A DNA stretch of 24,000 nucleotides. Origin: Alteracholeplasma palmae J233. GTDB lineage: Bacteria > Bacillota_I > Bacilli_A > Acholeplasmatales > Acholeplasmataceae. Positions 1,798-20,448 of this stretch are shown piece by piece. Location of the stretch: the NCBI RefSeq assembly GCF_000968055.1, contig NC_022538.1, positions 755,499 through 779,498 of the forward strand, written 5' to 3'. Each line of letters opens with the position of its first letter. Position 1 is the stretch's first letter. Both the position numbers and the translations under genes were made by a program. The notes beneath the pieces were generated by a model that did no database searches, had not been told where the DNA came from, and worked only from the letters and a program-made list of their open reading frames with translations.

Positions 1798-3294
1798 ATG
1801 GAACATTTCTCACAATGGTTTATTGAGTTTTTCAAAAAACTCTCACAAGACTTATGGGCTCTTTTATCTGGATTTTTTAAAGGTATCTATAACTTATTTA
1901 TAGGAAACCCAATTAATTATTTCAAAGATTTTAACGTACAATCAAAAAACTTCACTGCAGGAGACTGGGCATTATCAATTATGTTTATTACCATCTTTTT
2001 TGTAGTAGTAGTTTTACTCTTATTAGTGATTTACCAAATCATTAAAAGATATATAAGATTTACTAAAATAGAACAAGATAAGATTGATTTATTACATAGA
2101 CAACATCAACTTGAATTAAGACTAAAAAATGGTTCTATTCAAGCAAAAAACTCATCTATTTTTAATTCAAATCCTAAATCTAAAAAAGAAGCTCAAAATA
2201 AAAAAGGCAACAGATTTGTTAAATTATCTAATATTGATGAAAAATATAAATATAGTGTTCTAGCAACGCCTATGCTAGAAGAAGAAAAATTAAGTTTACC
2301 TCAACTAGTCACTAGATTTAGAAATTATTCAGCTTATGAACATAAACTATTTTATACTGAAAAAACGATTGCTATCTTCTTAGCAGGTATGGCCACATCT
2401 AAAACAATGATTCTAGAAGGTATCTCAGGTACTGGTAAAACCTCTTTACCATATGCCTTTGGTAAATTTATTTCACACGATTCAAGCATCATTTCTGTTC
2501 AGCCATCTTGGCGTGATAGATTTGAAATGATGGGATATTTAAATGAATTTACTAAAAAATTCAATGAAACTGAATTCTTAAGATCAGTCTATGAATCACT
2601 CTATAGAACAGATATTAATCTAATCGTATTAGATGAAATGAACCTTGCCAGAGTTGAATACTATTTCGCTGACTTTTTATCATTACTTGAACTTCCAAAT
2701 CCTGATGAATGGTTATTAGATTTAATCCCTGAACAAATTGTTGGGGATCCAGTTCAACTTAAAGAAGGTAAAATTAAAATTGCTCAAAACATCTGGTTTA
2801 TAGGAACAGCTAATAAAGATGACTCAACATTTGCAATTACTGATAAAGTATATGATAGAGCAGCTTCAATTGAAATGAATGATAAAGCACAAAGATTTGA
2901 TGCCCCTGAAACTAAGGCAATGAACCTTTCTTTTGACTACTTACAAAACCTATTTACTCAAGCAGAACAAAACCATTTTATTTCACCTAGTAATTTAGAT
3001 GCATTAGTAAAATTAGACACATATATTACTGAAAAGTTTGAGATTACATTTGGTAATCGTATTATGAAACAACTTAATACCTTTGTCCCAGTCTTCATGG
3101 CTTGTGGACAAGAAGAAGTAACTGGAATTGACTATATTATTGCTCGTAAAATTATCCGTAAGTTTGAAACACTTAACTTACCATTCTTACAAAAAGAATT
3201 ACAAGACCTTCTCCTTTTATGCGATAAACTATTTGGAAAAGATAAACTCATTGAAACTAAGAAATTAGTCAATAAATTCTTAAGACAAGTCTAG
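1798..3294 (+). CDS. Membrane-anchored McrB-family (AAA_5-type) AAA+ NTPase
   Basis: The ATG is 2 nt after the upstream stop, consistent with an operon. TM helix WALSIMFITIFFVVVVLLLLVIY. Walker A 'GISGTGKTS' (nt 2419-2445). 'SVQPSWRDRFEMMGYLN' parallels McrB 'QFHQSYSYEDFIQGYRP'. Walker B 'LIVLDEMNLARVEYYFADFLSLLE' parallels McrB 'IIDEINRANLSKVFGE..MLME'. 'IGTANKDDS' parallels McrB 'IGxMNTADRS', the NxxD guanine-specificity-like motif. Confidence 0.65.
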   Translation: MEHFSQWFIEFFKKLSQDLWALLSGFFKGIYNLFIGNPINYFKDFNVQSKNFTAGDWALSIMFITIFFVVVVLLLLVIYQIIKRYIRFTKIEQDKIDLLHRQHQLELRLKNGSIQAKNSSIFNSNPKSKKEAQNKKGNRFVKLSNIDEKYKYSVLATPMLEEEKLSLPQLVTRFRNYSAYEHKLFYTEKTIAIFLAGMATSKTMILEGISGTGKTSLPYAFGKFISHDSSIISVQPSWRDRFEMMGYLNEFTKKFNETEFLRSVYESLYRTDINLIVLDEMNLARVEYYFADFLSLLELPNPDEWLLDLIPEQIVGDPVQLKEGKIKIAQNIWFIGTANKDDSTFAITDKVYDRAASIEMNDKAQRFDAPETKAMNLSFDYLQNLFTQAEQNHFISPSNLDALVKLDTYITEKFEITFGNRIMKQLNTFVPVFMACGQEEVTGIDYIIARKIIRKFETLNLPFLQKELQDLLLLCDKLFGKDKLIETKKLVNKFLRQV

Positions 3295-3302
3295 GTTAAA
3301 TT

Positions 3303-5093
3303 ATGAAACGTAAATATGATTCAGAATTATTCTTAGAAAAAGTAAGTAATTCAATTGAAGAGCATGAACTTAATTTAGATTTTCCAGAAGTTTTTTATGA
3401 TGCCTTAACAGAAGGTAGTGCCAAAAGAAAACAAAGACAACATTTTGAATATAAAAAATTTGATGATGCGTGGCTAAAAAATATAGAAGCTTATTTTCCT
3501 AGTATTGATAGAATTACTAGAAATCTTAAATCGACTTTAAGATATGAAAGTGAAATCTTACCAATTGAAAAAACTAGAAAAACTAATCCAGAATCTATTA
3601 GACACTTAACTCAAAATACAAGATATATCAAAGAAATCAACGAAGATGATGAAATCATCCCAGAAAAAGTATTAAACATATTATCTGAAATAGAATATGG
3701 AATCTATGAAAATAGATTTATTATGACACTTATTTTCAGATTAAAAGATTATTTATATAACCGTCTTAAAGTCATTAAAGAACAAATGCATGGATTTAAA
3801 GAAACAACATTTGAATTATCAAATGATTTTTCGTTTAATCATGCAGATTATGAATTAGAAGTAAATCTTAAAGCCAAAGAAACAATTGATTCTAATAAAG
3901 AAGATGACCATAATAAAAGTGTTTTAGAAAGAACAGAAAGACTCTATCAACTTGTCTCTAGATTAATTAACAGTGAATTTATGCAAGTAATGAAAAAGTA
4001 TAAAAAAGTTAAACCGCCTATTATGAAAACACAAATCATCTTAAAGAACCCAGACTTTAGAAATGCCTATATGCTTTGGTTATACTTAGATAAAACACAT
4101 ATCTTAGATTATGAACTACAAACAGAAACAAAACAAAAAAGATTTACCCAAGAATACTACAATCATCTTAACCAAAGCTTACTTGTATTATTCTCAACAA
4201 TCTTTACTTACAGTGAGTTAGGTAGTGAAATAACAGATGATAAATTATTTACTTCATTAAAAAAAGCTAAAGAAGAATTAACATATGCTAGTAATCTAGA
4301 TACTAATATCCCTATTCATGATATAGAACCACAAGAAGCAACCGAATTCTATTTAAGAAAAGCTAGAACCTTATTTAATAAACATTACCAACAAATTATT
4401 GATAATAAGAACCCTCAACAAACAAGCGTTAAACAAGTTTTAATGGAACAATATAAACTAGTTGATCAAATATACCAAGACTACTTTGAGATTAATCAAG
4501 ACAGTGATGTTTTCTCACAACTTATTATGTATAAAGATCCAGTTAAAGCTTATGATGAGGCAAAAACGAGATACGATGTAGCAAAGGCTGCTAGACAGCT
4601 TAAAGAACAAATGTATCATGAGTCCTTAGAACTTGAAAACAAATGGATTGATGAGGTCAACAAACGTCAAGAATTCGCGATTAATGAATTACAAGCTGAA
4701 TTAACTTCTGTAACAAGTAAACAAATTGAAGAAATTCAAAAGAAAACTAAAAAAGAAGAAACTCAGTATGAAAAGAAATTAAATAAAGATAGAAAAGTAG
4801 CACTTAATAAACAAAAAGTACTTACAGATATTAAGTACCGTGAAATTAAACTTAAGTATGATGCTGATTTGAAGAAGTATAAAGAAAAAGAAAAACTAAG
4901 ACTTCAAAAAGAGAAAGAAAAATTAGCGTTAAAACTTAAAAAAGAAAAAGAAAGATTAAGAGTTAAGGCAACAAAAGAAAAATTAAGAGATAAAGAAATG
5001 CTTCAAGTGAGAAAAGATAATAAATTAAAGGCATATAAAGAAAAAATAGATGCACAAAAAAAGAAAGTTTCTAAAAACAATAAACAAAACTAG
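3303..5093 (+). CDS. McrC/DUF2357-like N-terminal region fused to a long Lys/Glu-rich coiled-coil tail; no recognisable PD-(D/E)xK motif
   Basis: The gene starts 8 nt after the McrB-like gene. 'IEYGIYENRFIMTLIFRLKDYL' (nt ~3705-3719 encode YENRF) resembles the ENRF(L/I) motif of McrC/DUF2357 partners of McrB-type NTPases. 'LKNPDFRNAYMLWLYL' resembles the following conserved helix. The last ~140 aa are KEKEKL-type heptad-like low complexity. The family call is from motif memory only. Confidence 0.35.
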   Translation: MKRKYDSELFLEKVSNSIEEHELNLDFPEVFYDALTEGSAKRKQRQHFEYKKFDDAWLKNIEAYFPSIDRITRNLKSTLRYESEILPIEKTRKTNPESIRHLTQNTRYIKEINEDDEIIPEKVLNILSEIEYGIYENRFIMTLIFRLKDYLYNRLKVIKEQMHGFKETTFELSNDFSFNHADYELEVNLKAKETIDSNKEDDHNKSVLERTERLYQLVSRLINSEFMQVMKKYKKVKPPIMKTQIILKNPDFRNAYMLWLYLDKTHILDYELQTETKQKRFTQEYYNHLNQSLLVLFSTIFTYSELGSEITDDKLFTSLKKAKEELTYASNLDTNIPIHDIEPQEATEFYLRKARTLFNKHYQQIIDNKNPQQTSVKQVLMEQYKLVDQIYQDYFEINQDSDVFSQLIMYKDPVKAYDEAKTRYDVAKAARQLKEQMYHESLELENKWIDEVNKRQEFAINELQAELTSVTSKQIEEIQKKTKKEETQYEKKLNKDRKVALNKQKVLTDIKYREIKLKYDADLKKYKEKEKLRLQKEKEKLALKLKKEKERLRVKATKEKLRDKEMLQVRKDNKLKAYKEKIDAQKKKVSKNNKQN

Positions 5094-5115
5094 ACAAAAG
5101 AGCCTTATTATCTAG

Positions 5116-5143
5116 TTGAAAAGTAGTTTAATTATGATACAAT
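5116..5143 (+). promoter_or_regulatory. Sigma-70-type promoter-like element (TTGAAA - 16 nt - TGaTACAAT)
   Basis: -35 TTGAAA at 5116-5121, a 16-nt spacer, the TG of an extended -10 at 5135-5136, and -10 TACAAT at 5138-5143. It sits immediately upstream of the hairpin terminator at 5172-5198. Confidence 0.4.
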
Positions 5144-5171
5144 ACATATGAAAAGTCTTAATATACGAAAG

Positions 5172-5198
5172 AGCAAGGATGAGGGTCCTTGCTTTTTC
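5172..5198 (+). terminator. Rho-independent terminator
   Basis: An 8-bp GC-containing stem, 'agcaagga' (5172-5179) paired with 'tccttgct' (5186-5193), has loop 'tgaggg' and is followed by a T-run (5193-5197). The stem can extend by A-T pairs on both sides. Confidence 0.65.
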
Positions 5199-5294
5199 TT
5201 TTAAACTTATCTGATAATATATTTAAGTTAAATAATAAAAGAAAATTAATCAAGCGATTTAGTTTTTAGATTAGTAAATAAACTATACAAAAAT

Positions 5295-5323
5295 TTGACA
5301 AAAGCTCTAAGAACATATATACT
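5295..5323 (+). promoter_or_regulatory. Sigma-70-type promoter of the ATPase/RloB-like operon (TTGACA - 17 nt - TATACT)
   Basis: Consensus -35 TTGACA at 5295-5300, an exact 17-nt spacer, and -10 TATACT at 5318-5323. It lies ~38 nt upstream of the SD-supported ATG at 5361. The TTG that the ORF track uses as a start is the first triplet of this -35 box. Confidence 0.6.
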
Positions 5324-5360
5324 ATTAGTGATGGATATTTTATCCAAGGAGGTATTTGCG

Positions 5361-6644
5361 ATGATTTTAAGTTTTGCTGTTAAAAACTATAAGTCAATTA
5401 AAGATTTATTAATATTAGACTTTACAACTGAAAAAAGTGAAGTTCAACCTAAGTTTGAAGCATTAGTAAAAAAAGAACAAGGACAATTAGTTACAAGGCT
5501 TAATTTTTTATATGGAAAGAATGGTTCAGGAAAAAGTAGTATAGTAGATGCATTAAAAGCATTATGTAAATTAGGAATATCAGATAACAATAAAACATCT
5601 GAGTCTGAGAAATTGATCATTAAGCCGTTTAAATTTTTAGAAGTTCTAGAAAGTAAAACCTTTTTTACATTATTGTTTGTAAACAACCAAAAAAAATATA
5701 GATACTCAGTTAGTTATGATGTTAATAAAGAAATAATTGATGATGAGCAGTTGAAATATATTGAAGATGATAAGGAAATAATCATTTTTTCAAAGTTAGA
5801 AGATCAATTTTTAAATTTGAATCAATCAGAATTAGAGAGATTAAAAACTTATAAATTAGAAAAAAACAGCATTTTAAGAACCCTCAGTAAAGAAATAGAA
5901 ATATCTAATATTAATATAAAAGCACATATAGATAATGTGTTTTCCTTTATAAACAAAATATATTTTAACTTTACTAAACTTAATTCAACGCAGAGTATTA
6001 AGCAATTAATAAATAATCCTAAAAAATTAAATGAAATTAAAAGTAAAATTAAAAAATTTGATTTAACTATTTCAGATATTAAAGTTGAAGAAAAAGATAT
6101 AAATCGTGAAGAATTTAACAGTAAATATAGTTCTTTTTTTGATGAATCTGATGAACAAATTAACAAAAGTCTTAGAAAAGTAATAGACACATTTTATGAA
6201 TTACAAAAATATAATTTAGAAATTATGCACGATCAAAATGGATTAAATTACCAAGAAGAATCAAAAGGAACGCAAAGAGCCTTAGACATTTTATTCTCAG
6301 TTTACAACATTGATTCAGGAGTTTTTATTATTGATGATTTTGAAAATGATTTACACTCTAAAAGTGCTCAAGAATTAGTTAAGTATCTCGCAAAAGAATT
6401 TATTACTCACCAATTCCTTTTTGTTACTCACGATCTAGAAATGCTAGACTTAAAAGAAGTCAAATTTAAACCACTGCACTTTTTTGCAGAAAGAGATACT
6501 AAAGATTTTTCAACAACAATAGAACGATTAACTACTTTTAAAGATTTAAGAAGCGATAGTAGAAATAGTTGGAAGAATTTTTATGAAAATCATAGACTCA
6601 CCCAATTTCCTAATATTAGCATTAATGATAAGGATGGTTTTTAA
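5361..6644 (+). CDS. ABC/AAA_21-AAA_15-type ATPase (RloA/AbiLi/AriA-like) of a two-gene defence-type module
   Basis: SD 'aaggagg' (5346-5352) lies 8 nt before the ATG at 5361. The N-terminus 'MILSFAVKNYKSIKD' is typical of this ATPase class. Walker A 'GKNGSGKSS' (nt 5514-5540). There is a long helical insertion. The C-terminal region has the signature-like 'SKGTQRAL', Walker B/D-loop 'VFIIDDFENDLH' and H-loop 'FVTHD'. Confidence 0.75.
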   Translation: MILSFAVKNYKSIKDLLILDFTTEKSEVQPKFEALVKKEQGQLVTRLNFLYGKNGSGKSSIVDALKALCKLGISDNNKTSESEKLIIKPFKFLEVLESKTFFTLLFVNNQKKYRYSVSYDVNKEIIDDEQLKYIEDDKEIIIFSKLEDQFLNLNQSELERLKTYKLEKNSILRTLSKEIEISNINIKAHIDNVFSFINKIYFNFTKLNSTQSIKQLINNPKKLNEIKSKIKKFDLTISDIKVEEKDINREEFNSKYSSFFDESDEQINKSLRKVIDTFYELQKYNLEIMHDQNGLNYQEESKGTQRALDILFSVYNIDSGVFIIDDFENDLHSKSAQELVKYLAKEFITHQFLFVTHDLEMLDLKEVKFKPLHFFAERDTKDFSTTIERLTTFKDLRSDSRNSWKNFYENHRLTQFPNISINDKDGF

Positions 6645-7453
6645 TGAATGATCTTATTAACAGTGTTGAAAAATACAAAAATAACAAGATTAGAACAACT
6701 AAAAGAATCCATGTATTTTATGAAGGCAGAGTAACTGAAAAAGATTTAATTGAATTATTTAATAAAGAGATGACTAGGCTCAATATTAAAGAAGATATTT
6801 TAAGTTTTATCGATATTAATGTTTCTAGTGAACCCAATAACGATTTAAATTATATTATTAAAACAGTTAATAAAAAAAAGAGTTATACCAATACAAGCGG
6901 TAATCAAATCTATTTTTATAAAGGAGACTATGTTTTATATTTACATGATTTTGATATCTACCATGATTACAGAGACTCAAAAAATGAAGCAAATGAAAAC
7001 AGAGTTAAAACAGCTATTAGGAATTTTGATATTAAATTTAAAGAAGTTAATCAAAATAAAAAAATAACTTTCTTAATTATTCCCAGTTTTCCATCAATAG
7101 AGTATCCTATAGCATTAGGATGTATAGCAACTGAAGAACTTAGAAGCATTAATATTTCTAACAAGCAAGATTGTATTGCTTATATTAACCAAAAAACAAA
7201 ATTTAGAATAACAGAAAAAGTAAAAGATTTCACAAATGTACTTTTAAGCAGAGCTTATTCACATGATAGAATGATATTTAACTGTAGTTTTGATAGAGTT
7301 AATAAAAAACTACTACAAAATTTAAAAGAATTTAATTCAGAACTATTAGCAAATGGTATAGATAAGTTTGTAGCAAATAGAAATAGGTCTTTTTCATATC
7401 TAGATGGAATAGTGGGAATTATTAATGATTTCTATATGAGTATTACTAAATAG
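6644..7453 (+). CDS. RloB-like / Toprim-type protein (AbiLii/OLD-Toprim-like partner of the ATPase)
   Basis: The start overlaps the upstream stop by 1 nt (TAATG), indicating translational coupling. 'RIHVFYEGRVTEKDLIELF' (nt 6710-6739) matches the RloB N-terminal 'CEGxxTExxYF' Toprim-Glu motif. 'VLYLHDFDIYHD' matches the acidic DxD block. 'FLIIPSFPSIEYPIALGC' matches RloB 'SNPcFElWlllH'. The size (269 aa) fits AbiLii/RloB proteins. Confidence 0.65.
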   Translation: MNDLINSVEKYKNNKIRTTKRIHVFYEGRVTEKDLIELFNKEMTRLNIKEDILSFIDINVSSEPNNDLNYIIKTVNKKKSYTNTSGNQIYFYKGDYVLYLHDFDIYHDYRDSKNEANENRVKTAIRNFDIKFKEVNQNKKITFLIIPSFPSIEYPIALGCIATEELRSINISNKQDCIAYINQKTKFRITEKVKDFTNVLLSRAYSHDRMIFNCSFDRVNKKLLQNLKEFNSELLANGIDKFVANRNRSFSYLDGIVGIINDFYMSITK

Positions 7454-10774: not shown

Positions 10775-12544
10775 ATGGAAATCACAGTATTAACAACGGA
10801 TTTAGTATATCAATCATTTATACTTGCTGCTAAGAATGTTATTAAAGAAAAAAAATTATTAAATGATTTAAATGTGTTTCCGGTTGCTGATAGTGATACA
10901 GGTAATAACTTAGCATCATTAATGGCATCTATTATTGAAAAAGCACAAAAAAGTGATAACTTAAATGATACATTAAATTCAATTTCTAATGCAGCAATCT
11001 ATGGTGCTAAAGGTAACTCAGGAATTATCTTTGCTCAATATATACAAGGTTTTTCTGAACAAGCAAGAAGTAATCAAATTACTATGGAAGAATTTAGTGT
11101 AAGGTTAGAAGAAGCTTTTCAAAGAGCATATGAGGCGATTTTACATCCAGTAGAAGGAACCATTATTACACTGATGCGAATTTTTTCTCAAACTGTAAAA
11201 AAATTATTGAATAAATCAGCTAATTTCGCTGATTTACTTAATAAAAGCTATGAAGAATTATTAATTGAGTTAGATAAAACACCTGAAAAATTACAAGTCT
11301 TAAAAGACAATAAAGTAATTGATGCAGGTGCTAAAGGATTTGTTTTATTTATTGAAGGATTTATAAAGGCTTTAGAAGGAACTGAAATAGAACTCTCTAA
11401 AGAATATATCTCTGAAATAAGTGAACAAAAAGGGCATATTGAAAAATCTAGTTTTAGATATTGTACAGAAGCATTAATTAAAAACGATCATAAAATGAGC
11501 GCAAGTGAAATTAGACAAGAACTCAGCCAATTAGGTGATTCATTAGTAGTCGCTAATACAAGTGATTACATTAGAGTTCATATTCATAGTGACAATCCAG
11601 AAAAAGTATTTAATACGCTCAGTCAAAAGGGTTTAATTGTTGAACAAAAAATAGATGATATGAAAAGACAATATGAAGTTGCGAATAAAAGAAAAAACGA
11701 TATTGCCTTAGTAACCGATTCTATTGCAGATTTACCAAAAGAACTAATTGATAAATATCAAATACATGTACTACCAGCAACCATTACTATTAATGAGATG
11801 ACATACTTTGATAAATTAAGTATCACTAATGAAAAGATTTATAAAAACATGGAAGAAAAAGATTTTTATCCATCTTCAAGTCAACCTAATATCAAGGTGA
11901 TAGAAAATTTACTAAAATTCTTAAATGAATATTACAAAGAAATCATTATTCTTAGCGTCTCTAGTAAAATGAGTGGGACATATCAAGTTTTTAGCCAAGT
12001 GGTAAAAAATTTAAAATTAGATAAAGTGACTTTAGTAGATAGCAAACGTAACTCAGGTGCTGAAGGACTATTAGTTTTAAAAACAGCGTTAATGATTGAT
12101 AATAAAATGAGTAAAGAAAAAATATTAGAAGAATTAGAAAAAGATATTCTAAAATCACAAATTTTAGTCAGCGTTAAAAATCTTAAATACATGGTGAGAT
12201 CAGGTAGACTAACAAAAACTAAAGGATTATTAGTTAAATTGTTAAATGTTAAACCAATTGTTAAAATTAATAACGAAGGTATTGGTGAAATTACAGATAA
12301 AGCATTTTCTATTAAAAAAGCGAATCAAAAGCTTTTGGATATGATTAGAAAAGTTCACCAAGAAAAAGAAATTATTTATTATAACATCGTCCATGCAGAC
12401 GCATTAGATAGAGTTAAAGAATATGAAAAAGAATTAATTTCTATTATAGGAACTAAACCCAATTATATTACAGAAATATCATCTGTTATCGCAATGAATT
12501 CAGGAATAGGTTCGATTGCGGTTTCATATATAACTAAAAAATAG
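10775..12544 (+). CDS. DAK2 (FakA-type kinase N-terminal and middle domains) fused to a DegV (FakB-type fatty-acid-binding) domain
   Basis: SD 'agaggt' precedes the ATG. N-terminal DAK2 motifs are 'DSDTGNNL' and 'GAKGNSGII'. The middle region 'FRYCTEALI...LGDSLVVANTSDYIRVHIHSDNPEKV' is like the FakA/YloV central domain. The C-terminal half is classical DegV: 'IALVTDSIADLPKELIDKYQIHVLP', 'SSSQPN', 'SVSSKMSGTYQ' and 'LVDSKRNSGAEG'. Confidence 0.75.
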   Translation: MEITVLTTDLVYQSFILAAKNVIKEKKLLNDLNVFPVADSDTGNNLASLMASIIEKAQKSDNLNDTLNSISNAAIYGAKGNSGIIFAQYIQGFSEQARSNQITMEEFSVRLEEAFQRAYEAILHPVEGTIITLMRIFSQTVKKLLNKSANFADLLNKSYEELLIELDKTPEKLQVLKDNKVIDAGAKGFVLFIEGFIKALEGTEIELSKEYISEISEQKGHIEKSSFRYCTEALIKNDHKMSASEIRQELSQLGDSLVVANTSDYIRVHIHSDNPEKVFNTLSQKGLIVEQKIDDMKRQYEVANKRKNDIALVTDSIADLPKELIDKYQIHVLPATITINEMTYFDKLSITNEKIYKNMEEKDFYPSSSQPNIKVIENLLKFLNEYYKEIIILSVSSKMSGTYQVFSQVVKNLKLDKVTLVDSKRNSGAEGLLVLKTALMIDNKMSKEKILEELEKDILKSQILVSVKNLKYMVRSGRLTKTKGLLVKLLNVKPIVKINNEGIGEITDKAFSIKKANQKLLDMIRKVHQEKEIIYYNIVHADALDRVKEYEKELISIIGTKPNYITEISSVIAMNSGIGSIAVSYITKK

Positions 12545-13339: not shown

Positions 13340-13351
13340 ATATTAAAAGAT

Positions 13352-13379
13352 AAAGCTCCTTAGTTCAAAAAGGAGCTTT
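13352..13379. terminator. Bidirectional rho-independent terminator between convergent genes
   Basis: A 10-bp stem, 'aaagctcctt' (13352-13361) paired with 'aaggagcttt' (13370-13379), is flanked by an A-run upstream and a T-rich run downstream. It lies between the 3' ends of the DUF1295-like gene and the recombinase gene. Confidence 0.7.
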
Positions 13380-13393
13380 ATTATTTATAATGG

Positions 13394-14302
13394 CTATAAT
13401 TTATTTCGATAATTAAATTTTGCTAGAACTTGGCGCTTTCTTTTATTTGTAACCTCAGTATAAATTTGAGTAGTAGAAATACTAGCATGTCCTAATATTT
13501 CTTGGACTGATCTTATATCTGCACCATTGGCTAGTAAATTAGTCGCAAACGTATGTCTTAAATAATGAGGAGTAGCAGAAGGATTAATTTTAGCTAAATC
13601 TCGATATTTAGAAAAAACATCTTCAATTGCATAAATTGACATTGGATTTAAATATCTATTTATAAAAACAGATGAATGATTCACTGTAAATGTGTTTCTT
13701 AGTTTAATAAAATTTTTTAACCTATCCCAAGTAATTTGAGATGAAATATATACTAATCTTTGTTTTCTTCCTTTACCATGAATGAGTATAGTATGTTCAT
13801 GATATATAATATCTTCAAGCTTTAAAGCAACAACTTCATGTATTCTCATACCAGTAGTAATAAGTAAATCTAAAATAGCGGCATCCCTTATAGATATAAA
13901 TTGATTAAAAGAAGACTTTGTATTTTCCAAAGATGAATCAATTACTTTTAAAAGATTAGAGACTTCCTTAACTGTGAGTGTTTTAGGAAGTCTTTTCTCT
14001 TTTTTAAAACTAAATTTTAGTTTAAGTAAAGGTGTTGATTTAATTAAATTATCTTCAAATAGACAATTATAAAACATATTAATAGCTATAAGTTTTCGTT
14101 TAATAGAAGTATCTTTTAAGTTGCGTTCATTTCTAAGATGATTTAAATAACTAATAATATTTCTTTTTGTAATATCCACTTGTTCAAAATTTACAAAGTC
14201 TACTAAGTCTGAGTAGTAAGCTTTTATAGTTTTTGAAGATAAATTCTTAGAGTTTTCTATCTTTTCTAGAAAATAATTGATTTGTTTCGTTGTTTTCGTC
14301 AT
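13394..14302 (-). CDS. Tyrosine site-specific recombinase (XerC/XerD-like integrase family)
   Basis: SD 'aaggag' precedes the ATG. The N-terminal SAM-like block is 'TIKAYYSDLVDFVNF'. The catalytic region has 'TTGMRIHEVVALKLEDI' (Arg I), 'HGKGRKQR' (Lys), 'HYLRHTFAT' (HxxR) and 'LGHASISTTQIYTEV' (His/Tyr nucleophile). Confidence 0.85.
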   Translation of the reverse strand: MTKTTKQINYFLEKIENSKNLSSKTIKAYYSDLVDFVNFEQVDITKRNIISYLNHLRNERNLKDTSIKRKLIAINMFYNCLFEDNLIKSTPLLKLKFSFKKEKRLPKTLTVKEVSNLLKVIDSSLENTKSSFNQFISIRDAAILDLLITTGMRIHEVVALKLEDIIYHEHTILIHGKGRKQRLVYISSQITWDRLKNFIKLRNTFTVNHSSVFINRYLNPMSIYAIEDVFSKYRDLAKINPSATPHYLRHTFATNLLANGADIRSVQEILGHASISTTQIYTEVTNKRKRQVLAKFNYRNKL

Positions 14303-14394
14303 GTAATATTCTCCTTAGGACAGTTTCGCCCTACTCAATTGTATCAAATAGTGATAATATATAGACAAAATTTATTTTTACTATATTTGGTATA

Positions 14395-14419
14395 AATAAT
14401 AACAAATTATTGGAGGGAA
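14395..14419 (+). repeat. Left arm of a perfect 25-bp inverted repeat (AATAATAACAAATTATTGGAGGGAA) containing the SD of the 14421 gene
   Basis: This is the exact reverse complement of 17410-17434. It ends 1 nt before the ATG at 14421. An extended -10-like 'TGgTATAAA' (14388-14396) abuts and overlaps its outer end. Confidence 0.9.
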
Positions 14420-14420
14420 A

Positions 14421-16187
14421 ATGAAAAAATATAAACTGGCAAATAGAACTAAAACATCTTTAAATATATTCTTTATGTTATTGTTTTCTATTGGAATCAC
14501 CTTCTCATATTTTTATAGTAATGAAAGTAGTAATTATGTAAAAATAATTGCTGTAATTTGTGAAATATCGGCAATGGCATATTTTGTTATTCCAACTATT
14601 ATTGGAAATATATATTATGATGAAAAATATATAAAAATATCGACTGATTTATTTACTGATAGAAAAGAGACTATTAAGTTTGTAATTGATGAATTATATA
14701 CTATATTAAAGAATAAAAATTTAACAAAAATCATTTCTATAAAAACAAAAGATCAAAGTGGTGTCGGAAAAACAGAACTATTAAGAAAAATTAGAGATAT
14801 ATTTTATAACAAAGAACTTGCTAAAAAATATCTATCTGATGACTTTTACAAGTGGACGTATATAAAGAAAAAGATAGGTGATGCACATCTTGTTGATTAT
14901 AATCCTGATACATTTAATTCAATACAATATAATTATCCAAAAACAATATTTAAAATAAATCTTTTACTAGTGGATAATATGCCAGTTTTTTACGGTGATA
15001 TTAATAAAGATAATATAATTGTTTATTGTAAAATTACATCCGAAGAAGAATCTGTTTTATCTAATATGACAGTTACTGATATTAAGACACTCTACTCTAA
15101 AAAATTCTACAGAGATTTATCTGACGAGGAGGCTAGTATTGTTTTTGAAATAACTGGTGGAAATGTAAAAAATATTAATAAAATTTTACATGATGAATCA
15201 ACATTTACTTCATTTATTAAAAACCACAGAACAATTGCTGAAATTGAGTTTACTATGCAAATTGGAGATTATAAAAAAGCAAAAGAAATGTTAGATAATT
15301 TAAGTAGTAACCCAGCATTTATTAGACAATTAAGATTAAATGTAGATTTGGAGTTTGAGTATAAATTTTTAGAGGCTGATTTAACCCACTTGCAAAATAA
15401 TTATGTCGAATCAGTTGAGATGTTAGAGGCCCTTTTATCAAATATAATAATAGTAAATGATGATTTAAAAGCCAACAAAATAATAGAAAAAATATCCCAT
15501 ATAAAAAAACATATGGGAAAATTTAAGGAGGCACTAAAGTACATTTCTTATTTAGATAAAAATGATTTTACTTTAAGATCTCTGAGTTTATTATTACTTT
15601 CTTACACACAATATGATAATGAAGAGTATTTAAAGGAGTTTCTAAATAGTATAGATTATATAGAAATCAATAAGATTACATCAAATCATTTTAATGATCC
15701 TTACAAAACTTATAAAGGAGTAGCATTGATTTACAATAATCTAAAAATGAATAAACATGAAGAGATTAGTTTTGAAAATGCACACTCGGTTATAAATAGC
15801 ATTATTCAAATATATGAAAAACATAATAGCAGATTTATCACTAATTGCTATTTTATTAAGGCAGAGTTTTACAGACACCAAAAAAGATATGATTATGCGA
15901 TAATCTACTACTCAAAATGTTTAGATATATATATAATGAATAATGACTTTGATATATACTCTCTTGTTTACTGTATGATCAGGTATATTGAGATAACACA
16001 ACATAAAGATTTTAAACTAATCAATAAGATAGACTTAGAAAAAATAAAGACCATATGTACTGATAAAAAAATGTCATACAATTTAAAAATAGCGCATCAT
16101 TTATCAGAAATTATTGATGGTGTGAATTCTGAATCACTGGTTGCAAGTAAACTTTTTTTTGATAAAAATATTTTCCTTATTCCATAA
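14421..16187 (+). CDS. Membrane-anchored P-loop NTPase (NB-ARC/STAND-like) with a C-terminal TPR-like helical-repeat region
   Basis: Two N-terminal TM helices (LNIFFMLLFSIGITFSYFY; IIAVICEISAMAYFVIPTIIG). The P-loop is 'KDQSGVGKTELLRKI' (nt 14757-14780; GVGKT as in NB-ARC proteins, but the first Walker-A Gly is replaced by Asp). A Walker-B-like 'INLLLVDNM' follows. 'FEITGGNVKNINKIL' sits in the position of the GxP/'GLPLAL' helix. The C-terminal ~300 aa have repeated Y/L/A-rich helical pairs typical of TPRs ('YDYAIIYYSKCLDIY'). Confidence 0.45.
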   Translation: MKKYKLANRTKTSLNIFFMLLFSIGITFSYFYSNESSNYVKIIAVICEISAMAYFVIPTIIGNIYYDEKYIKISTDLFTDRKETIKFVIDELYTILKNKNLTKIISIKTKDQSGVGKTELLRKIRDIFYNKELAKKYLSDDFYKWTYIKKKIGDAHLVDYNPDTFNSIQYNYPKTIFKINLLLVDNMPVFYGDINKDNIIVYCKITSEEESVLSNMTVTDIKTLYSKKFYRDLSDEEASIVFEITGGNVKNINKILHDESTFTSFIKNHRTIAEIEFTMQIGDYKKAKEMLDNLSSNPAFIRQLRLNVDLEFEYKFLEADLTHLQNNYVESVEMLEALLSNIIIVNDDLKANKIIEKISHIKKHMGKFKEALKYISYLDKNDFTLRSLSLLLLSYTQYDNEEYLKEFLNSIDYIEINKITSNHFNDPYKTYKGVALIYNNLKMNKHEEISFENAHSVINSIIQIYEKHNSRFITNCYFIKAEFYRHQKRYDYAIIYYSKCLDIYIMNNDFDIYSLVYCMIRYIEITQHKDFKLINKIDLEKIKTICTDKKMSYNLKIAHHLSEIIDGVNSESLVASKLFFDKNIFLIP

Positions 16188-17406
16188 ACAAGTCATTTAT
16201 AATGTAGGATGCTTGTTTTTTTGAAGAAATTTCATAGCACAGTGAACGTATTTTATTCTCATTAGGAAACTCTCTTGATATTAAGTAAATTAGTTCTGCA
16301 ACTTTATTTAAATCTCTAGTATTAAAATTATATCTAGCAATTTCTTGAGTTCCCAACCTTATTCCTGTTAATAACCTAGATTTTCTTTTATTTAGTGTTA
16401 TATTGAATTTTGTCGCATTAATATATAATATATCAGCCGTTTTCTCACTAGTTTCAATAAAAATTTGGTGTGTTTCACTATAAATATTTCTGTTAATTTT
16501 ACGTACAGTTAAACCTTTTTCTTCTAACAGTTTACCTAACAGGTTAGATGTCTCTATTATTTTATTTTGATAAGCTATTCCAATTTCTTTAAGTTCAATT
16601 AAAGCTAAAAAAAGTGAAGCAATATTATTAGGCTGAATATTTCTTAAATATGTTGGTGATATTGAAAAATCTATTTTTTCAATATAATCGTTGTTATTTG
16701 TCATAATTATCCCACAAGTTGGACCTGGGAGAGTCTTATGAGTTCCTCCAATAAGCAGTAAATTATCAACTAAATTCAAGGGGTTTTCTAATAGACCCGC
16801 ACCAATTAACCCCAAAGTTTGAGAGGCATCGTAAATAATTCCTTGATTAGAGGTTAATTTTATCTTTTTTATGTCTGGACTTTTTATTAAATCAGATTGG
16901 CATATAATAATAAATTCTATATCTTCATCTCTCAAAATCTGATTTAGAAGTGTATAGTCTATATCATAATTTACATAATCATATGGTATTGGTTTATAAT
17001 TAATCCCATAGTTTTCAAGTATTTTTGTTAAAGACGGATGCCCTCCCATATCTTTGGTTGTAATTAGTACTTTTTTTACATTTTTCAATAGGGACATTGC
17101 TAGTATAGAAAAACAATTCATTCCGGATAAGGTTCTACAATCAGTATATTTCACATTGTATATTTCTTTGCATATTCCAGATACTAGTTCCATTAACCGA
17201 TAAATATAGTCACTTCCAATGTTGTCTTTATCGATTATTCTTTTCTTATAACCTTGTATGTATTTACCTTCAAATTCTGATCGCAATCCTTGCTTAACAA
17301 AATCAGAAACATATGTTTCTGCAGCACATAATGGAATTTTAATATTATTGAACCTTGTATATTCTTTGTATAATTTTTTGAATTCATCTAGAAAACTAGT
17401 GCTCAT
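16177..17406 (-). CDS. Divergent serine-hydroxymethyltransferase-fold (fold-type I) PLP-dependent enzyme
   Basis: 'IPLCAAETYVSDFVKQGLRSEFEGKYIQGY' parallels SHMT 'LIASENxxSxxVxxAxGSxLTNKYAEGY'. 'LLLIGGTHKTLPGPTCGIIM' (nt 16721-16750, minus strand) parallels the SHMT PLP-lysine motif 'TTTTHKTLRGPRGG'. 'DMGGHPS' parallels 'SHGGHLTHG'. The canonical 'RYYGG' block is not recognisable. The SD lies inside the right IR arm. Confidence 0.7.
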   Translation of the reverse strand: MSTSFLDEFKKLYKEYTRFNNIKIPLCAAETYVSDFVKQGLRSEFEGKYIQGYKKRIIDKDNIGSDYIYRLMELVSGICKEIYNVKYTDCRTLSGMNCFSILAMSLLKNVKKVLITTKDMGGHPSLTKILENYGINYKPIPYDYVNYDIDYTLLNQILRDEDIEFIIICQSDLIKSPDIKKIKLTSNQGIIYDASQTLGLIGAGLLENPLNLVDNLLLIGGTHKTLPGPTCGIIMTNNNDYIEKIDFSISPTYLRNIQPNNIASLFLALIELKEIGIAYQNKIIETSNLLGKLLEEKGLTVRKINRNIYSETHQIFIETSEKTADILYINATKFNITLNKRKSRLLTGIRLGTQEIARYNFNTRDLNKVAELIYLISREFPNENKIRSLCYEISSKKQASYIINDLFME

Positions 17407-17409
17407 ACA

Positions 17410-17434
17410 TTCCCTCCAATAATTTGTTATTATT
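17410..17434 (-). repeat. Right arm of the perfect 25-bp inverted repeat (plus strand TTCCCTCCAATAATTTGTTATTATT) containing the SD of the 17406 gene
   Basis: This is the exact reverse complement of 14395-14419. It ends 3 nt before the ATG at 17406 on the minus strand. Confidence 0.9.
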
Positions 17435-17900
17435 AAGAGGAAACTTATTGAATTGATTATAGTTCCATTTGTCCTAAAGAATATATTGAAGTTGATCTCA
17501 AAAAGAATGACCGCAGATTAAAAGAATTATGTTCATATTAATGTAGAAAGTAGATATTTGCATTGGTTTAAGTAGAGTATCAAATTATTTTAGTATATCT
17601 AATTTATTAGGTTGATTAAAGTAGAAACTAATTATAGAGGATGATATTCTCAAACACCAAAGTGAAAAGTACTTCAGTTCTTTGTGATATAATAGAAATT
17701 AAGCTATCGGAGCACTTAGTAGAAGAAGGGTGAAAACATTAAAATTACTTGAGAATAAAATAGATACAACCAAAATGAAAAAGCCTTCATTTTTGATGGT
17801 CTTAACTGGAAGCAGTTATTCATATATAAGAGAAGGTGGTATATTAGTAGTCTCTATAGCATCATTAAAAGATTAAATATTATTATACTTAAATAGAAAA

Positions 17901-17929
17901 AAGGATATCTTCACATTTAAGATATCCTT
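17901..17929. terminator. Bidirectional rho-independent terminator
   Basis: An 11-bp stem, 'aaggatatctt' (17901-17911) paired with 'aagatatcctt' (17919-17929), has an A-run upstream and a T-run downstream. It lies just past the 3' end of the TetR gene. Confidence 0.7.
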
Positions 17930-17955
17930 TTGTAATATAAAGGTTATTTATAAAA

Positions 17956-18525
17956 TTATGCAAAGCTCTTAATAATAGATTCCAATAAATTATCAAGTTG
18001 TTCTTTACTAGCATAGAACTTAGGCTTAATTTGTGTATACATATCACACATTTGGAAAAATAATTCCATAGTAATAGAAGGTCTGATGAGTTTTGCTTCT
18101 AAACATGAGGTATATAATTTAATCATTGCAGGATATGAACCTTGATACAGGTTTAAAACATAATCTTTTATTTCTTTATTTAATCCAGAATAAACATATT
18201 CTTGAATCGATTCTTGGTAAGGATTTTCAGTAAAAGTATTAAAAGTAAACTTAAAGTAGTTCATGAGCTTATCATAGGCACTACAATCACTTTCTAAAAT
18301 TTTAACAACAGAACAAATCGCTTCATTGGCATGAAGTTTTAAAACCTCGGTTATTAAAATATCTTTACTTCCAAATATATTATAAATAGTTACTTGAGAG
18401 ACATGAGCTCTTTTTTTTATATCATCAATTGTAATATGATGAATACTTTTTTCTTTTAATAGTAACTTAGTAGCTTCTAAGATGTCATTTCTTTTTTTTA
18501 GCGTTCTTTCAATATGTTTTCCCAA
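17956..18525 (-). CDS. TetR/AcrR-family transcriptional regulator
   Basis: The HTH block is 'ITIDDIKKRAHVSQVTIYNIFGSKDILI'. I moved the start to the TTG at 18525 because GGAGG (rc of 18534-18538) lies 8 nt upstream of it. The ORF-track TTG at 18546 is upstream of that SD and has none of its own. Confidence 0.8.
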   Translation of the reverse strand: MGKHIERTLKKRNDILEATKLLLKEKSIHHITIDDIKKRAHVSQVTIYNIFGSKDILITEVLKLHANEAICSVVKILESDCSAYDKLMNYFKFTFNTFTENPYQESIQEYVYSGLNKEIKDYVLNLYQGSYPAMIKLYTSCLEAKLIRPSITMELFFQMCDMYTQIKPKFYASKEQLDNLLESIIKSFA

Positions 18526-18708: not shown

Positions 18709-20448
18709 ATGTTAGAAGAAAAATTAAAAAATCTACCCCTTAACCCAGGTTGCTATCTAATGAAAAATAAGGATGGCTTGGTTATTTATGTAGGTAAAGC
18801 TAAAATATTAAAAAATAGAGTGAAAAGTTACTTTACTGGTTCACATAATAAAAAAACAGCTCTTTTAGTTTCTGAAATAGCTGATTTTTCATATGTAATG
18901 ACTAACAGTGAACAAGAATCACTTATTTTAGAAGCTAATTTAATTAAACAATATTCACCTAAGTATAATATTAGATTAATGGATGATAAAACGTATCCTT
19001 ATATTGAAATAACAAGTGAAAAAGATCCAATGTTAGTCGTTTCTAGATATAAAGAAGTTCCTAAAAATGCTATTTTATTTGGACCTTATCCTAACGCCAC
19101 AAGCGCTAAAGAAACAGTTAAACTTCTACATAAATTATACCCACTTAGAAGATGTAACCCAATTGCACCTAAACCATGTATTTATTATCATATTGGTCAA
19201 TGCTTAGGACCTTGTTGCCACAATGGTGAGATAGACTATAAACCGAATATAGAATCTATTACTAGATTTTTAAAAGGTGATAATAAAGACGCTTTAAAAA
19301 GACTTAAAATGCTCATGGAAAAGGCATCTGAAGAGTTATCATTTGAAATGGCTATTGAATATCGAGATATGATAGAACATGTTAAAACCACAACAGAAAA
19401 ACAAGTCATGCGTATTAATGACTTAAAAGACAGAGATTTTATAGCCTATACTCATAATGAGGATGATATTGCAATACACATTCTAAAAATGAGACAAGGA
19501 AGAATCTTAGATACGCATCAAAGTGTCTTTTCATATATTGGAGATATTAAAGAAAATGTTTTAACCTATTTAGTTCAGCATTATCAAATAGAACTGAAAC
19601 CAGAAGAACTGGTTGTAGGTGAAACTTGGGAAAATGATGATTTAGAAACATTGTTAGAAACTAAAATCTATATTCCTAAAAAAGGTGATAAGAAGAAGTT
19701 ATACAATTTAGCATTAGATAATGCTAAAGAGGATCTTCTAAAACATCACTTAGTCTATAGAGTAAAAGATGAACTCAAACAAGAAGGTATGAACCAATTA
19801 TCTAAAATATTTGAAAAAGAAATTCAGCATATAGAAGTATTTGATAACGCTCAATTATTTGGAGTTGCCCCAATTTCTGCGATGATTACTTATAAAAACT
19901 TAAAGTTTGATAAGAACTTATATCGTAAGTATCACATAAAAACGGCAGTTGAGGATGATTATCAATCATTTAAAGAAGTTATTTATAGAAGATATCAAAG
20001 ATTATTAATAGAAAATAAAACGATGCCAGATCTAATTTTAGTAGATGGTGGCATTGGACAATTAAACGCAGCTTTAGAGACTTTAAATAATCTAGGGTTA
20101 AATATTCCAATAGGCGGACTTAAAAAGAATAATAAGCACCAATTAGAAGCCCTAGTCATCCCTAATGAAACTATCTTCTTAGATAAAAAATCTGAATTAT
20201 TTAAATTATTATTAAGCTTAAGTGAGGAAATCCATAGATTTGCGATTACCTTCCATAAGAAAACAAGAACAAAACAAGCTAATCTATCCGTATTTGATAA
20301 AATACCTGGATTAGGTGAAAAAAGAAAAAAAGCATTATTACAAACTTTTTCTGGCATCGATGAAATTAAAAATGCTAGTATCAAGCAACTCACAGATATC
20401 GGCATACCAGAAGCAGTCGCAAATAATCTTAAAGAGGTGTTAAAGTGA
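18709..20448 (+). CDS. uvrC: Excinuclease ABC subunit C
   Basis: The GIY-YIG N-terminus is 'PGCYLMKNKDGLVIYVGKAKILKNRVKSYF...YNIRLMDDKTYPYI'. The Cys cluster is 'CNPIAPKPCIYYHIGQCLGPC'. A UVR domain, an endonuclease-V-like region and C-terminal (HhH)2 'IPGLGEKRKKALLQTF' follow. The ATG at 18709 is preferred over the GTG at 18700 because the SD 'aggtga' (18698-18703) lies 5 nt upstream. Confidence 0.9.
   Translation: MLEEKLKNLPLNPGCYLMKNKDGLVIYVGKAKILKNRVKSYFTGSHNKKTALLVSEIADFSYVMTNSEQESLILEANLIKQYSPKYNIRLMDDKTYPYIEITSEKDPMLVVSRYKEVPKNAILFGPYPNATSAKETVKLLHKLYPLRRCNPIAPKPCIYYHIGQCLGPCCHNGEIDYKPNIESITRFLKGDNKDALKRLKMLMEKASEELSFEMAIEYRDMIEHVKTTTEKQVMRINDLKDRDFIAYTHNEDDIAIHILKMRQGRILDTHQSVFSYIGDIKENVLTYLVQHYQIELKPEELVVGETWENDDLETLLETKIYIPKKGDKKKLYNLALDNAKEDLLKHHLVYRVKDELKQEGMNQLSKIFEKEIQHIEVFDNAQLFGVAPISAMITYKNLKFDKNLYRKYHIKTAVEDDYQSFKEVIYRRYQRLLIENKTMPDLILVDGGIGQLNAALETLNNLGLNIPIGGLKKNNKHQLEALVIPNETIFLDKKSELFKLLLSLSEEIHRFAITFHKKTRTKQANLSVFDKIPGLGEKRKKALLQTFSGIDEIKNASIKQLTDIGIPEAVANNLKEVLK

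Follow-up and report, generated by a model that had tools for sequence, protein, structure and literature searches.

We asked why two unrelated, convergent genes of Alteracholeplasma palmae J233, one for a 588-amino-acid (aa) membrane-anchored STAND-like NTPase and the other for a 409-aa pyridoxal phosphate (PLP) enzyme with the serine hydroxymethyltransferase (SHMT) fold, are enclosed by an inverted repeat next to the gene of a tyrosine recombinase. Positions refer to a 24,000-nt stretch of this genome, called the window throughout, and numbers preceded by L denote the loci with which it was compared. An earlier note on this DNA had taken the recombinase and the repeat as mere context for a pair of genes. 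Our analysis places them instead at the core of the system: positions 14395 to 17434 probably form an invertible, exchangeable cassette that is serviced by the adjacent Xer-like recombinase and behaves as a phase-variable, largely either/or switch.

Both open reading frames (ORFs) were found where the earlier note had placed them (Table 1), converging and overlapping by 11 nt. The 25-bp inverted repeat is exact (14395-14419 and 17410-17434); each of its arms consists of a core site and a ribosome-binding site, and together they bound a cassette of 3,040 bp. Among the orthologous loci, a 17-bp palindrome of the form RATAAY-N5-RTTATY precedes both genes in all lineages with enough flanking sequence (18 loci), and the pattern holds even where the repeat is only 17 to 22 nt long. 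The 5-nt spacer of this site is the same within a locus and different between loci, with 17 distinct spacers in the 18 loci. In the window, the pattern was matched three times against 0.23 matches expected, and two of the three are the sites that bracket the cassette. The third match (19843-19859, GATAACGCTCAATTATT) lies inside uvrC, has a spacer unlike those of the cassette sites and is probably due to chance. Two other readings of the palindrome were tried and rejected. GATAAT...ATTATC resembles a Fur box, for which the spacing is 7-1-7, but the spacing here is 6-5-6; and an RNA hairpin is not indicated, since the half-sites vary without compensation.

The recombinase matches the Pfam families Phage_integrase and Phage_int_SAM_1, and the catalytic residues R139, K177, H246-x-x-R249, H272 and Y281 are invariant in the alignment of its family, which is large (>3,100 clusters at E<=1e-30). 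A homologue directly adjoins the pair in about 18 lineages, on the SHMT-like side in 11 and on the STAND-like side in 9. The outer bases of the site vary with the clade of the recombinase: recombinases with the motif PHYLRH accompany A...T and those with PHMFRH accompany G...C, with one mixed case. We also note that L039 (Paenibacillus amylolyticus) and L050 (an Enterococcus species) carry an identical 31-bp site, ACCTCCAAATAA-CTATAAA-TTATTTGGAGGT, whose arms double as ribosome-binding site and which overlaps or abuts the stop codon of the recombinase gene. The second site of L050 appears degenerate, and that copy may be locked.

Comparison of orthologous loci showed that recombination between the sites flips the cassette. 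Between L058 and L061, a 3.07-kb segment is 99.8% identical on the same strand while both flanks (8.2 kb each) match on the opposite strand, and the same switch of orientation was found for a 3.9-kb three-gene segment when L053 was compared with L055 and L057. The contigs of opposite orientation belong to one species and come from different samples. The junctions swap inside a 20-bp core, GATAATAAAGAGTTATTCGT, that lies 20 to 30 nt upstream of each start codon. A sister segment encoding a pentapeptide-repeat protein and an aminotransferase-like enzyme is likewise inverted, at 100% identity, between L065 and L066. In addition, the longest contig measured 2.95 to 3.3 kb in 38 of 120 SHMT-like clusters and 3.7 to 4.0 kb in 12 more, lengths in keeping with those of the cassettes; many contigs contain nothing but the cassette and stop at the repeats. 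Contigs of this kind would be expected if assembly graphs break at a flipping segment or at long repeats. In one contig (L021, 1-141 and 3189-3329), the ends repeat 120 nt of the recombinase-side flank together with the site at 100% identity, as would be expected if both orientations were present in one sample.

The recombinase and the cassette also move together between genomes. Identity between L053 and L055 is 99.95-100% over cassette and recombinase gene, as against 86% for the neighboring pyrophosphatase gene, 68% for ComEC and 76% for a radical-SAM gene (67-86% is the range for the neighbors of the module). Moreover, an entire cassette can give way to an unrelated pair of genes, with the sites as the exact boundaries of the replacement. 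L075 and L087 have a common platform, in which identity is 99.0% over 4.4 kb of left flank and 92% in the flank with the recombinase, and the site and ribosome-binding site are the same; between the sites, L075 holds a STAND-like/SHMT-like pair and L087 an unrelated ATP-grasp pair. The trees of recombinase and cargo agree only loosely (rho 0.37). Consistent with exchangeable cargo, homologues of the recombinase stand beside other convergent, overlapping pairs in which the same sites abut the ribosome-binding sites. These cassettes set a pentapeptide-repeat protein opposite an aminotransferase-like enzyme, a 750- to 810-aa STAND/TPR-like protein opposite an ATP-grasp ligase, an S-adenosylmethionine (SAM) methyltransferase opposite a protein of 340 to 670 aa, or a GT2 glycosyltransferase opposite a TIR-like protein. 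The bounded segment of L074 differs in that its three genes all point the same way; TIR and SIR2 domains are present in two of them. In a separate observation, L063 (5448-8441) encodes a recombinase 69% identical to that of the window; a PNP_UDP_1-STALD gene reads directly into its cassette site, and the recombinase has a ThsB-type TIR gene on its opposite side.

Table 1. Elements of the cassette and its surroundings, in window coordinates.
Feature	Position	Strand	Basis
Bidirectional terminator, outer limit of the module on the recombinase side	13349-13382
Xer-like tyrosine recombinase, 302 aa, presumed invertase and cassette-exchange enzyme	13394-14302	-	Pfam match, invariant catalytic residues, adjacency
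Recombinase-side flank with candidate promoter into the cassette	14303-14394	+	Extended -10 TGgTATAAA at 14388-14396, read from sequence
Left recombination core AATAAT-AACAA-ATTATT	14395-14411	+	Repeat, site pattern, crossovers mapped to the equivalent core of L058/L061
Ribosome-binding site GGAGGGAA, inner part of the 25-bp inverted repeat	14412-14419	+	Read from sequence
STAND-like NTPase gene, 588 aa	14421-16187	+	ORF
Tail-to-tail gene overlap of 11 nt, no space for a terminator	16177-16187		ORF coordinates
SHMT-fold PLP enzyme gene, 409 aa	16177-17406	-	ORF
Inner 8 bp of the right repeat arm (GGAGGGAA on the - strand), with the GGAGGG ribosome-binding site of the SHMT-like gene	17410-17417	-
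Right recombination core, exact reverse complement of the left core	17418-17434	-
Far flank, ~460 nt of non-coding host DNA, TATAAT at ~17458-17463	17435-17898
Terminator of the TetR gene, shielding the far flank from read-through	17899-17931	-

We next considered how inversion of such a cassette would bear on the expression of its genes. The gap between core and start codon in the window is 9 nt for one gene and 11 nt for the other, and it contains GGAGGG. As so little sequence lies inside each core, the promoters would have to reside in the fixed flanks or overlap the sites; with promoters in the fixed flanks, flipping would exchange the promoters of the two genes. In orthologous modules, the recombinase-side flank often contains a near-consensus TTGnAA-17-TGnTAnAAT that ends 8 nt outside the recombinase-proximal site. 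The consensus-based promoter score of this flank was better than that of the far flank in 16 of 24 loci, worse in 6 and tied in 2 (Wilcoxon p=0.014). A scan of the window with a generic sigma-70 model returned 50 sites where 44 were expected, and told little in DNA so rich in A and T. We propose that the adjacent recombinase acts at the two inverted 17-bp cores and flips the 3,040-bp cassette, and that the recombinase-side promoter would read into whichever gene faces it, the far flank being arbitrary host DNA. With no terminator in the overlap, the transcript of the favored gene would run antisense through the other gene. One state would then yield the membrane-anchored STAND-like/TPR protein and the other a folate-independent SHMT-fold PLP enzyme. 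It is the convergent overlap without a terminator, together with the positions of the sites and the recombinase-side promoter, that points to either/or rather than joint expression.

Several observations weigh against this proposal. The inversions were seen in orthologous and sister cassettes, and A. palmae is represented by a single genome. Promoter calls are consensus matches in AT-rich DNA; by score, the recombinase-side promoter of the window is weak (TGgTATAAA only), and its far flank has a perfect TATAAT. In lineages with long repeats, which extend at least 66 nt outward in L007 and 42 nt inward in L015 and L016, the two genes may share promoters, and with identical promoters flipping would leave expression there unchanged. 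The strict co-occurrence of the two proteins fits joint rather than alternate action. Finally, no PADLOC model matched either cassette protein, the viral contigs searched yielded no relative, and the plasmids searched matched only ordinary glyA-type genes (~25-28% identity), the cassette not being found there.

The strict linkage of the two genes was borne out across the Bacillota. An Xer-like tyrosine recombinase, inverted RATAAY-N5-RTTATY sites and the convergent pair are found together in about 20 lineages of this phylum. The convergent, overlapping pair was found in about 25 loci, in Lachnospiraceae, Erysipelotrichaceae, Coprococcus, Paenibacillus, Enterococcus and Syntrophomonas; it is present in Neglectibacter as well, and also on contigs from pig-gut and other metagenomes; the co-occurrence in many genomes for which the earlier note had proposed a check is thus real. 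Most lineages have an overlap of 11 nt, and the others range from 6 to 27 nt. The two cargo genes co-diverge (Mantel rho 0.75), the SHMT-like proteins being 34-78% identical across loci. In two lineages (L053, 9339-10001; L020, 5300-5986), an extra gene lies inside the segment, upstream of the SHMT-like gene. Its product, of about 220 to 230 aa, has two membrane helices and a phosphoribosyltransferase (PRTase)-like motif, VVILDDVSKTGET, and the STAND-like partner lacks the Walker A motif, or P-loop, in the lineages that carry this third gene. The SHMT-like cassette subfamily is sporadic and occurs as a cassette gene in Paenibacillus, Enterococcus and Lachnospiraceae; the view of the earlier note that the locus is accessory DNA is supported. 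Its statement that the pair had not been described also stands, as neither PADLOC nor the literature searched yielded a description of the pair or of the cassette class, coverage of the literature being incomplete and an earlier description possible. The cassette families are not listed in a systematic survey of inversions (PMC9881135).

The repeat, the recombinase and the ORF-poor flank are likewise as first described. The extra AT-richness proposed for the pair turned out to be modest, with a G+C content of 0.22 to 0.25 against 0.26 to 0.30. Downstream of 17406, the sequence is ORF-poor (17407-17955) up to a TetR gene, and the far flank (17407-17960) was found to contain neither an ORF nor remnants of cassette genes and to resemble none of the flanks at other loci. 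An Rfam scan of the whole window returned no RNA family, and the shared leaders are therefore not a known riboswitch. We note that the ~460 nt at 17435-17898, which have neither an ORF nor an Rfam match, are unusually long for a compact genome and lie exactly on the far side of the cassette.

The 588-aa protein, annotated as a "conserved hypothetical protein", begins with two hydrophobic helices (residues ~13-32 and 39-62, from hydropathy and the AlphaFold model), followed by FTDR, a Walker A motif (GVGKT) and a Walker B motif (LLLVDN). Its AlphaFold model (predicted local distance difference test score [pLDDT] 88) shows a beta-alpha core and then an all-helical solenoid (residues ~218-582). 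In Foldseek searches, the top match to this model was the STAND-TPR protein 6mfv, and Rap/NprR-type TPR proteins came next. The Pfam TPR and NTPase matches of the protein itself are all sub-threshold. A domain-profile scan of the partner family gave weak matches to Roq1 NB-ARC (E=0.03) and to ATPase_2/NACHT (4-5 of 16 members). Among distant orthologues, L038 exceeds the ATPase_2 threshold (40.9 bits against a cut-off of 33.2), NB-ARC, AAA_22 and TPR are matched weakly, and Pfam TPR is clear in L039 and L050. The family is rare (120 clusters in a profile search of 1.84 billion representatives), and all of its members have one or two hydrophobic helices at the N-terminus. The motifs follow in the order F-x-D-R, GxGK[TS] (P-loop) and hhhhD[DN] (Walker B). 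Most of 31 homologues retain GK[TS], and a few are without the P-loop lysine or the entire loop. Conservation is strongest at polar residues of the solenoid (H323, Y328, H360, H364, N475, E482, R485, Y497 and D509), which suggests a ligand pocket. An idea that the C-terminal tail docks onto the TPR region was dropped, as it could not be told apart from the dual-coding constraint of the overlap.

On motifs and modeled fold, "membrane-anchored STAND-like NTPase with TPR", essentially the architecture that the earlier note had read from the sequence, is a fair description, with the STAND profile matches of the window protein itself sub-threshold. The protein shares with STAND NTPases that have TPR sensors (Avs-type, MalT/AfsR/GutR-type and PH0952) the P-loop, the upstream F-x-D-R, the Walker B motif and a C-terminal TPR-like solenoid. 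Unlike Avs, it is far smaller, and compared with both Avs and MalT-type STANDs, membrane helices at the N-terminus replace the effector or DNA-binding domain. It also departs from known STANDs in its sub-threshold profile matches, in the loss of Walker A in some lineages and in the lack of a PADLOC match.

The 409-aa protein matches Pfam SHMT (E=1e-21). It scores 153.4 bits against NCBIfam PRK00011 (GlyA), below the family cut-off of 335, and is named a hypothetical protein in RefSeq and serine hydroxymethyltransferase in the original GenBank record. The closest folds to its AlphaFold model (pLDDT 91) are the L-threonine transaldolase ObiH (7k34) and SHMTs; identity to solved enzymes is only about 20-24%. 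SHMT and the L-threonine transaldolases (ObiH and fluorothreonine transaldolase) have in common the fold-type I SHMT fold and a T-H-K Schiff-base lysine. The cassette enzyme keeps GGTHKTLPGP, and in an alignment of 24 SHMT-like members H123 (the PLP-stacking His), D193 (the Asp to N1), S171, H223-K224 and R350 (the carboxylate-binding Arg) are invariant. The likeness to SHMT ends at three features. In an alignment with the enzyme of B. stearothermophilus (bsSHMT), the position opposite the catalytic E53 is variable (Q51 in the window protein); Y60 and Y61 of the RYYGG block, which is missing here, align with D61 and N62/F, and the Tyr-Tyr is not conserved; and N341 is kept as N339, but the folate loop after this Asn is ~6-8 residues shorter than in SHMTs.

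The failure against PRK00011, the unconserved E53, Tyr60 and Tyr61, and the shortened loop mean that the 409-aa protein is not an orthologous GlyA, as the earlier note had supposed, whether or not A. palmae has another glyA; a literature search for a canonical glyA in this organism found none. Judged by its residues, the enzyme is predicted to belong to a folate-independent branch of the SHMT fold; its substrate probably resembles an amino acid, and its reaction that of an aldolase or transaldolase. Outside the pair, its closest relatives (~40% identity) form a sister branch (L027-L037, L042, L043, L046 and L051) in which a MobA-like nucleotidyltransferase is either fused to the enzyme or encoded next to it, and sister-branch genes neighbor LicD, TagF-like, GT2, RgpF and EpsG genes. 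For this branch, the genomic neighbors argue for a small molecule for surface polymers rather than one-carbon metabolism, and it is likely a pathway for a nucleotide-activated amino compound that decorates such polymers.

Four other explanations of the locus were weighed. In a static two-gene sensor-effector system, the STAND-like NTPase would sense a signal, for example a phage, and control the PLP effector, with the genes co-expressed and inversion incidental. The strict co-occurrence and co-divergence of the genes (Mantel rho 0.75) and the STAND and TPR architecture of the partner would fit such a system, as would the defense genes nearby (AbiLi-like and PDC-M26A-like in the window; Septu and HEPN/MNT genes beside L058) and the promoter regions that may be identical for both genes in some lineages. 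However, physical linkage alone explains the co-divergence, the terminator-less convergent overlap disfavors strong joint expression, and the sites separate flank promoters from ribosome-binding sites, with a recombinase-side promoter in many lineages. Inverted sites and a dedicated recombinase have been conserved over a divergence as deep as 34-78% identity in the SHMT-like protein, which argues that flipping is under selection. Walker A is also lost in some lineages, and PADLOC gave no match. We consider a static system unlikely. A selfish element in the style of dif modules, in which the inverted Xer-type sites have no other task than transfer of the cassette between platforms and flipping is a by-product without regulatory meaning, would account for the cassette replacement at an identical platform (L075/L087), the loose agreement of recombinase and cargo phylogenies (rho 0.37) and the recent transfer between divergent genomes. 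It would not predict that in most lineages, at both ends, each site falls exactly where the flank meets the ribosome-binding site, that a promoter is positionally conserved just outside the recombinase-proximal site, or that both orientations are common within one species, and we regard it as decidedly unlikely.

The palindromic repeat could in principle be a transcription-factor operator that co-regulates both genes, given that a 6-5-6 palindrome lies at or near the transcription start region of each. Orientation variants, however, switch exactly inside the palindrome, the boundaries of cassette replacement coincide with it, its spacer is constant within every locus and different between loci, and its outer base covaries with the recombinase clade; moreover, neither cassette protein has a DNA-binding domain by Pfam or NCBIfam. 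All of this makes an operator very improbable. That the 409-aa protein is simply the divergent housekeeping GlyA of the organism would be in line with its original GenBank name and its Pfam SHMT match, but the PRK00011 score (153 bits against 335), the RefSeq name, the unconserved equivalents of bsSHMT E53, Y60 and Y61, the shortened loop after N341 and the sporadic occurrence of the subfamily as a cassette gene in Paenibacillus, Enterococcus and Lachnospiraceae leave this explanation with hardly any credibility. An invertible, exchangeable cassette under the adjacent recombinase thus remains the reading that we favor.

The other cassettes raise the question of how general the arrangement is. 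Besides SHMT-like proteins, the enzymes seen in cassettes are aminotransferase-like PLP enzymes, an ATP-grasp ligase, a SAM methyltransferase and a GT2 glycosyltransferase. It is possible, although we put this forward tentatively and at somewhat less than an even chance, that Bacillota carry a large unrecognized cassette system, in which an Xer-like platform with a resident promoter accepts interchangeable cassettes of an enzyme and a STAND, TIR-like or pentapeptide protein, and flipping yields mutually exclusive enzyme and sensor/effector states. If true, this would be a phase-variable conflict or immunity module of a new kind, and its cassettes would be exchanged in a new manner. A role of the cassette family in conflict or defense is faintly suggested by the STAND, TIR-like and SIR2 cargo, the sporadic distribution and the defense-gene neighbors. 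As an alternative reading, the LicD and TagF relatives and the polysaccharide locus around L058 suggest that the enzyme partners modify the cell envelope.

If the switch works as we infer, phase variation here takes a new form, in which the choice is between two complete genes of unrelated kind, not between the on and off states of a single gene or among paralogues. Standard screens for invertons generally rely on repeats spaced by a few hundred bases and would miss a 3-kb cassette. The cassettes also break short-read assemblies, the longest contig being about the size of a cassette in 50 of 120 clusters. Exchange on a platform would add an integron-like route for accessory genes in gut and soil Bacillota, and the pairing of an enzyme with a STAND, TIR-like or pentapeptide protein gives leads on several protein families, including the folate-independent SHMT-fold branch.

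Elsewhere in the window, we noted a defense-like cluster upstream of the cassette (1798-7453). It includes a 498-aa protein (1798-3294) that matches the PADLOC candidate PDC-M26A (E=2e-39), a 596-aa ORF (3303-5093) with no match, a 449-aa AAA_21 ATPase (5295-6644) that matches AbiLi (E=5e-42) and, after this gene and overlapping it, a 269-aa ORF (6644-7453) with no family match. A 589-aa protein (10775-12544) has Dak2, the middle domain of FakA and a complete DegV domain in one chain, and is apparently FakA fused to FakB, the two subunits of fatty-acid kinase. A 442-aa protein (467-1795) has weak GGDEF and sub-threshold EAL matches, and is possibly a degenerate cyclic di-GMP protein in a Mollicute-related organism.

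Among known recombination systems, the closest in layout are the G segment of phage Mu with Gin and the C segment of P1 with Cin, which are invertible segments of about 3 kb with short inverted repeats, convergent genes and a recombinase gene just outside. A fixed outside expression signal selects the gene set that is read, and Gin and Cin are serine invertases. The cassette resembles them in segment size, inverted repeats, convergent genes and outside recombinase and, by inference, in its outside expression signal. It differs in using an Xer-like tyrosine recombinase instead of a serine invertase. The alternatives of Mu are homologous tail-fiber variants with a common constant 5' part, whereas the cassette genes are unrelated and complete, the sites lie upstream of them, and whole cassettes can be exchanged. 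In Mollicutes, the group of the window organism, the Vpma/Xer1 and Vsa/HvsR systems of Mycoplasma shuffle families of paralogous surface lipoproteins; a dedicated tyrosine recombinase is encoded next to them, and sites in 5' untranslated regions hand a promoter from gene to gene. The adjacent tyrosine recombinase and the sites 5' of the genes are shared with the cassette, as would be the promoter hand-over, but the cassette holds a single pair of unrelated cytoplasmic or membrane proteins and is spread across Bacillota.

Exchange of cargo calls to mind integrons, in which a tyrosine recombinase acts on exchangeable cassettes and a platform promoter lies beside the recombinase gene, and the pdif modules of Acinetobacter, which are bounded by inverted Xer-type sites. 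Common to all is a tyrosine recombinase that acts on discrete, exchangeable cassettes, a resemblance that for integrons is functional only. Each locus examined here held one cassette, with 17-bp palindromic cores (no search aimed at attC or attI was made), and, in contrast to integrons, the cassettes are convergent two-gene units for which inversion is a regular outcome. Unlike pdif modules, the cassettes lie on the chromosome and have a dedicated recombinase next to them. The recombination chemistry belongs to a known type; what appears to be new is the combination of a platform with invertible, exchangeable cassettes of two unrelated convergent genes.

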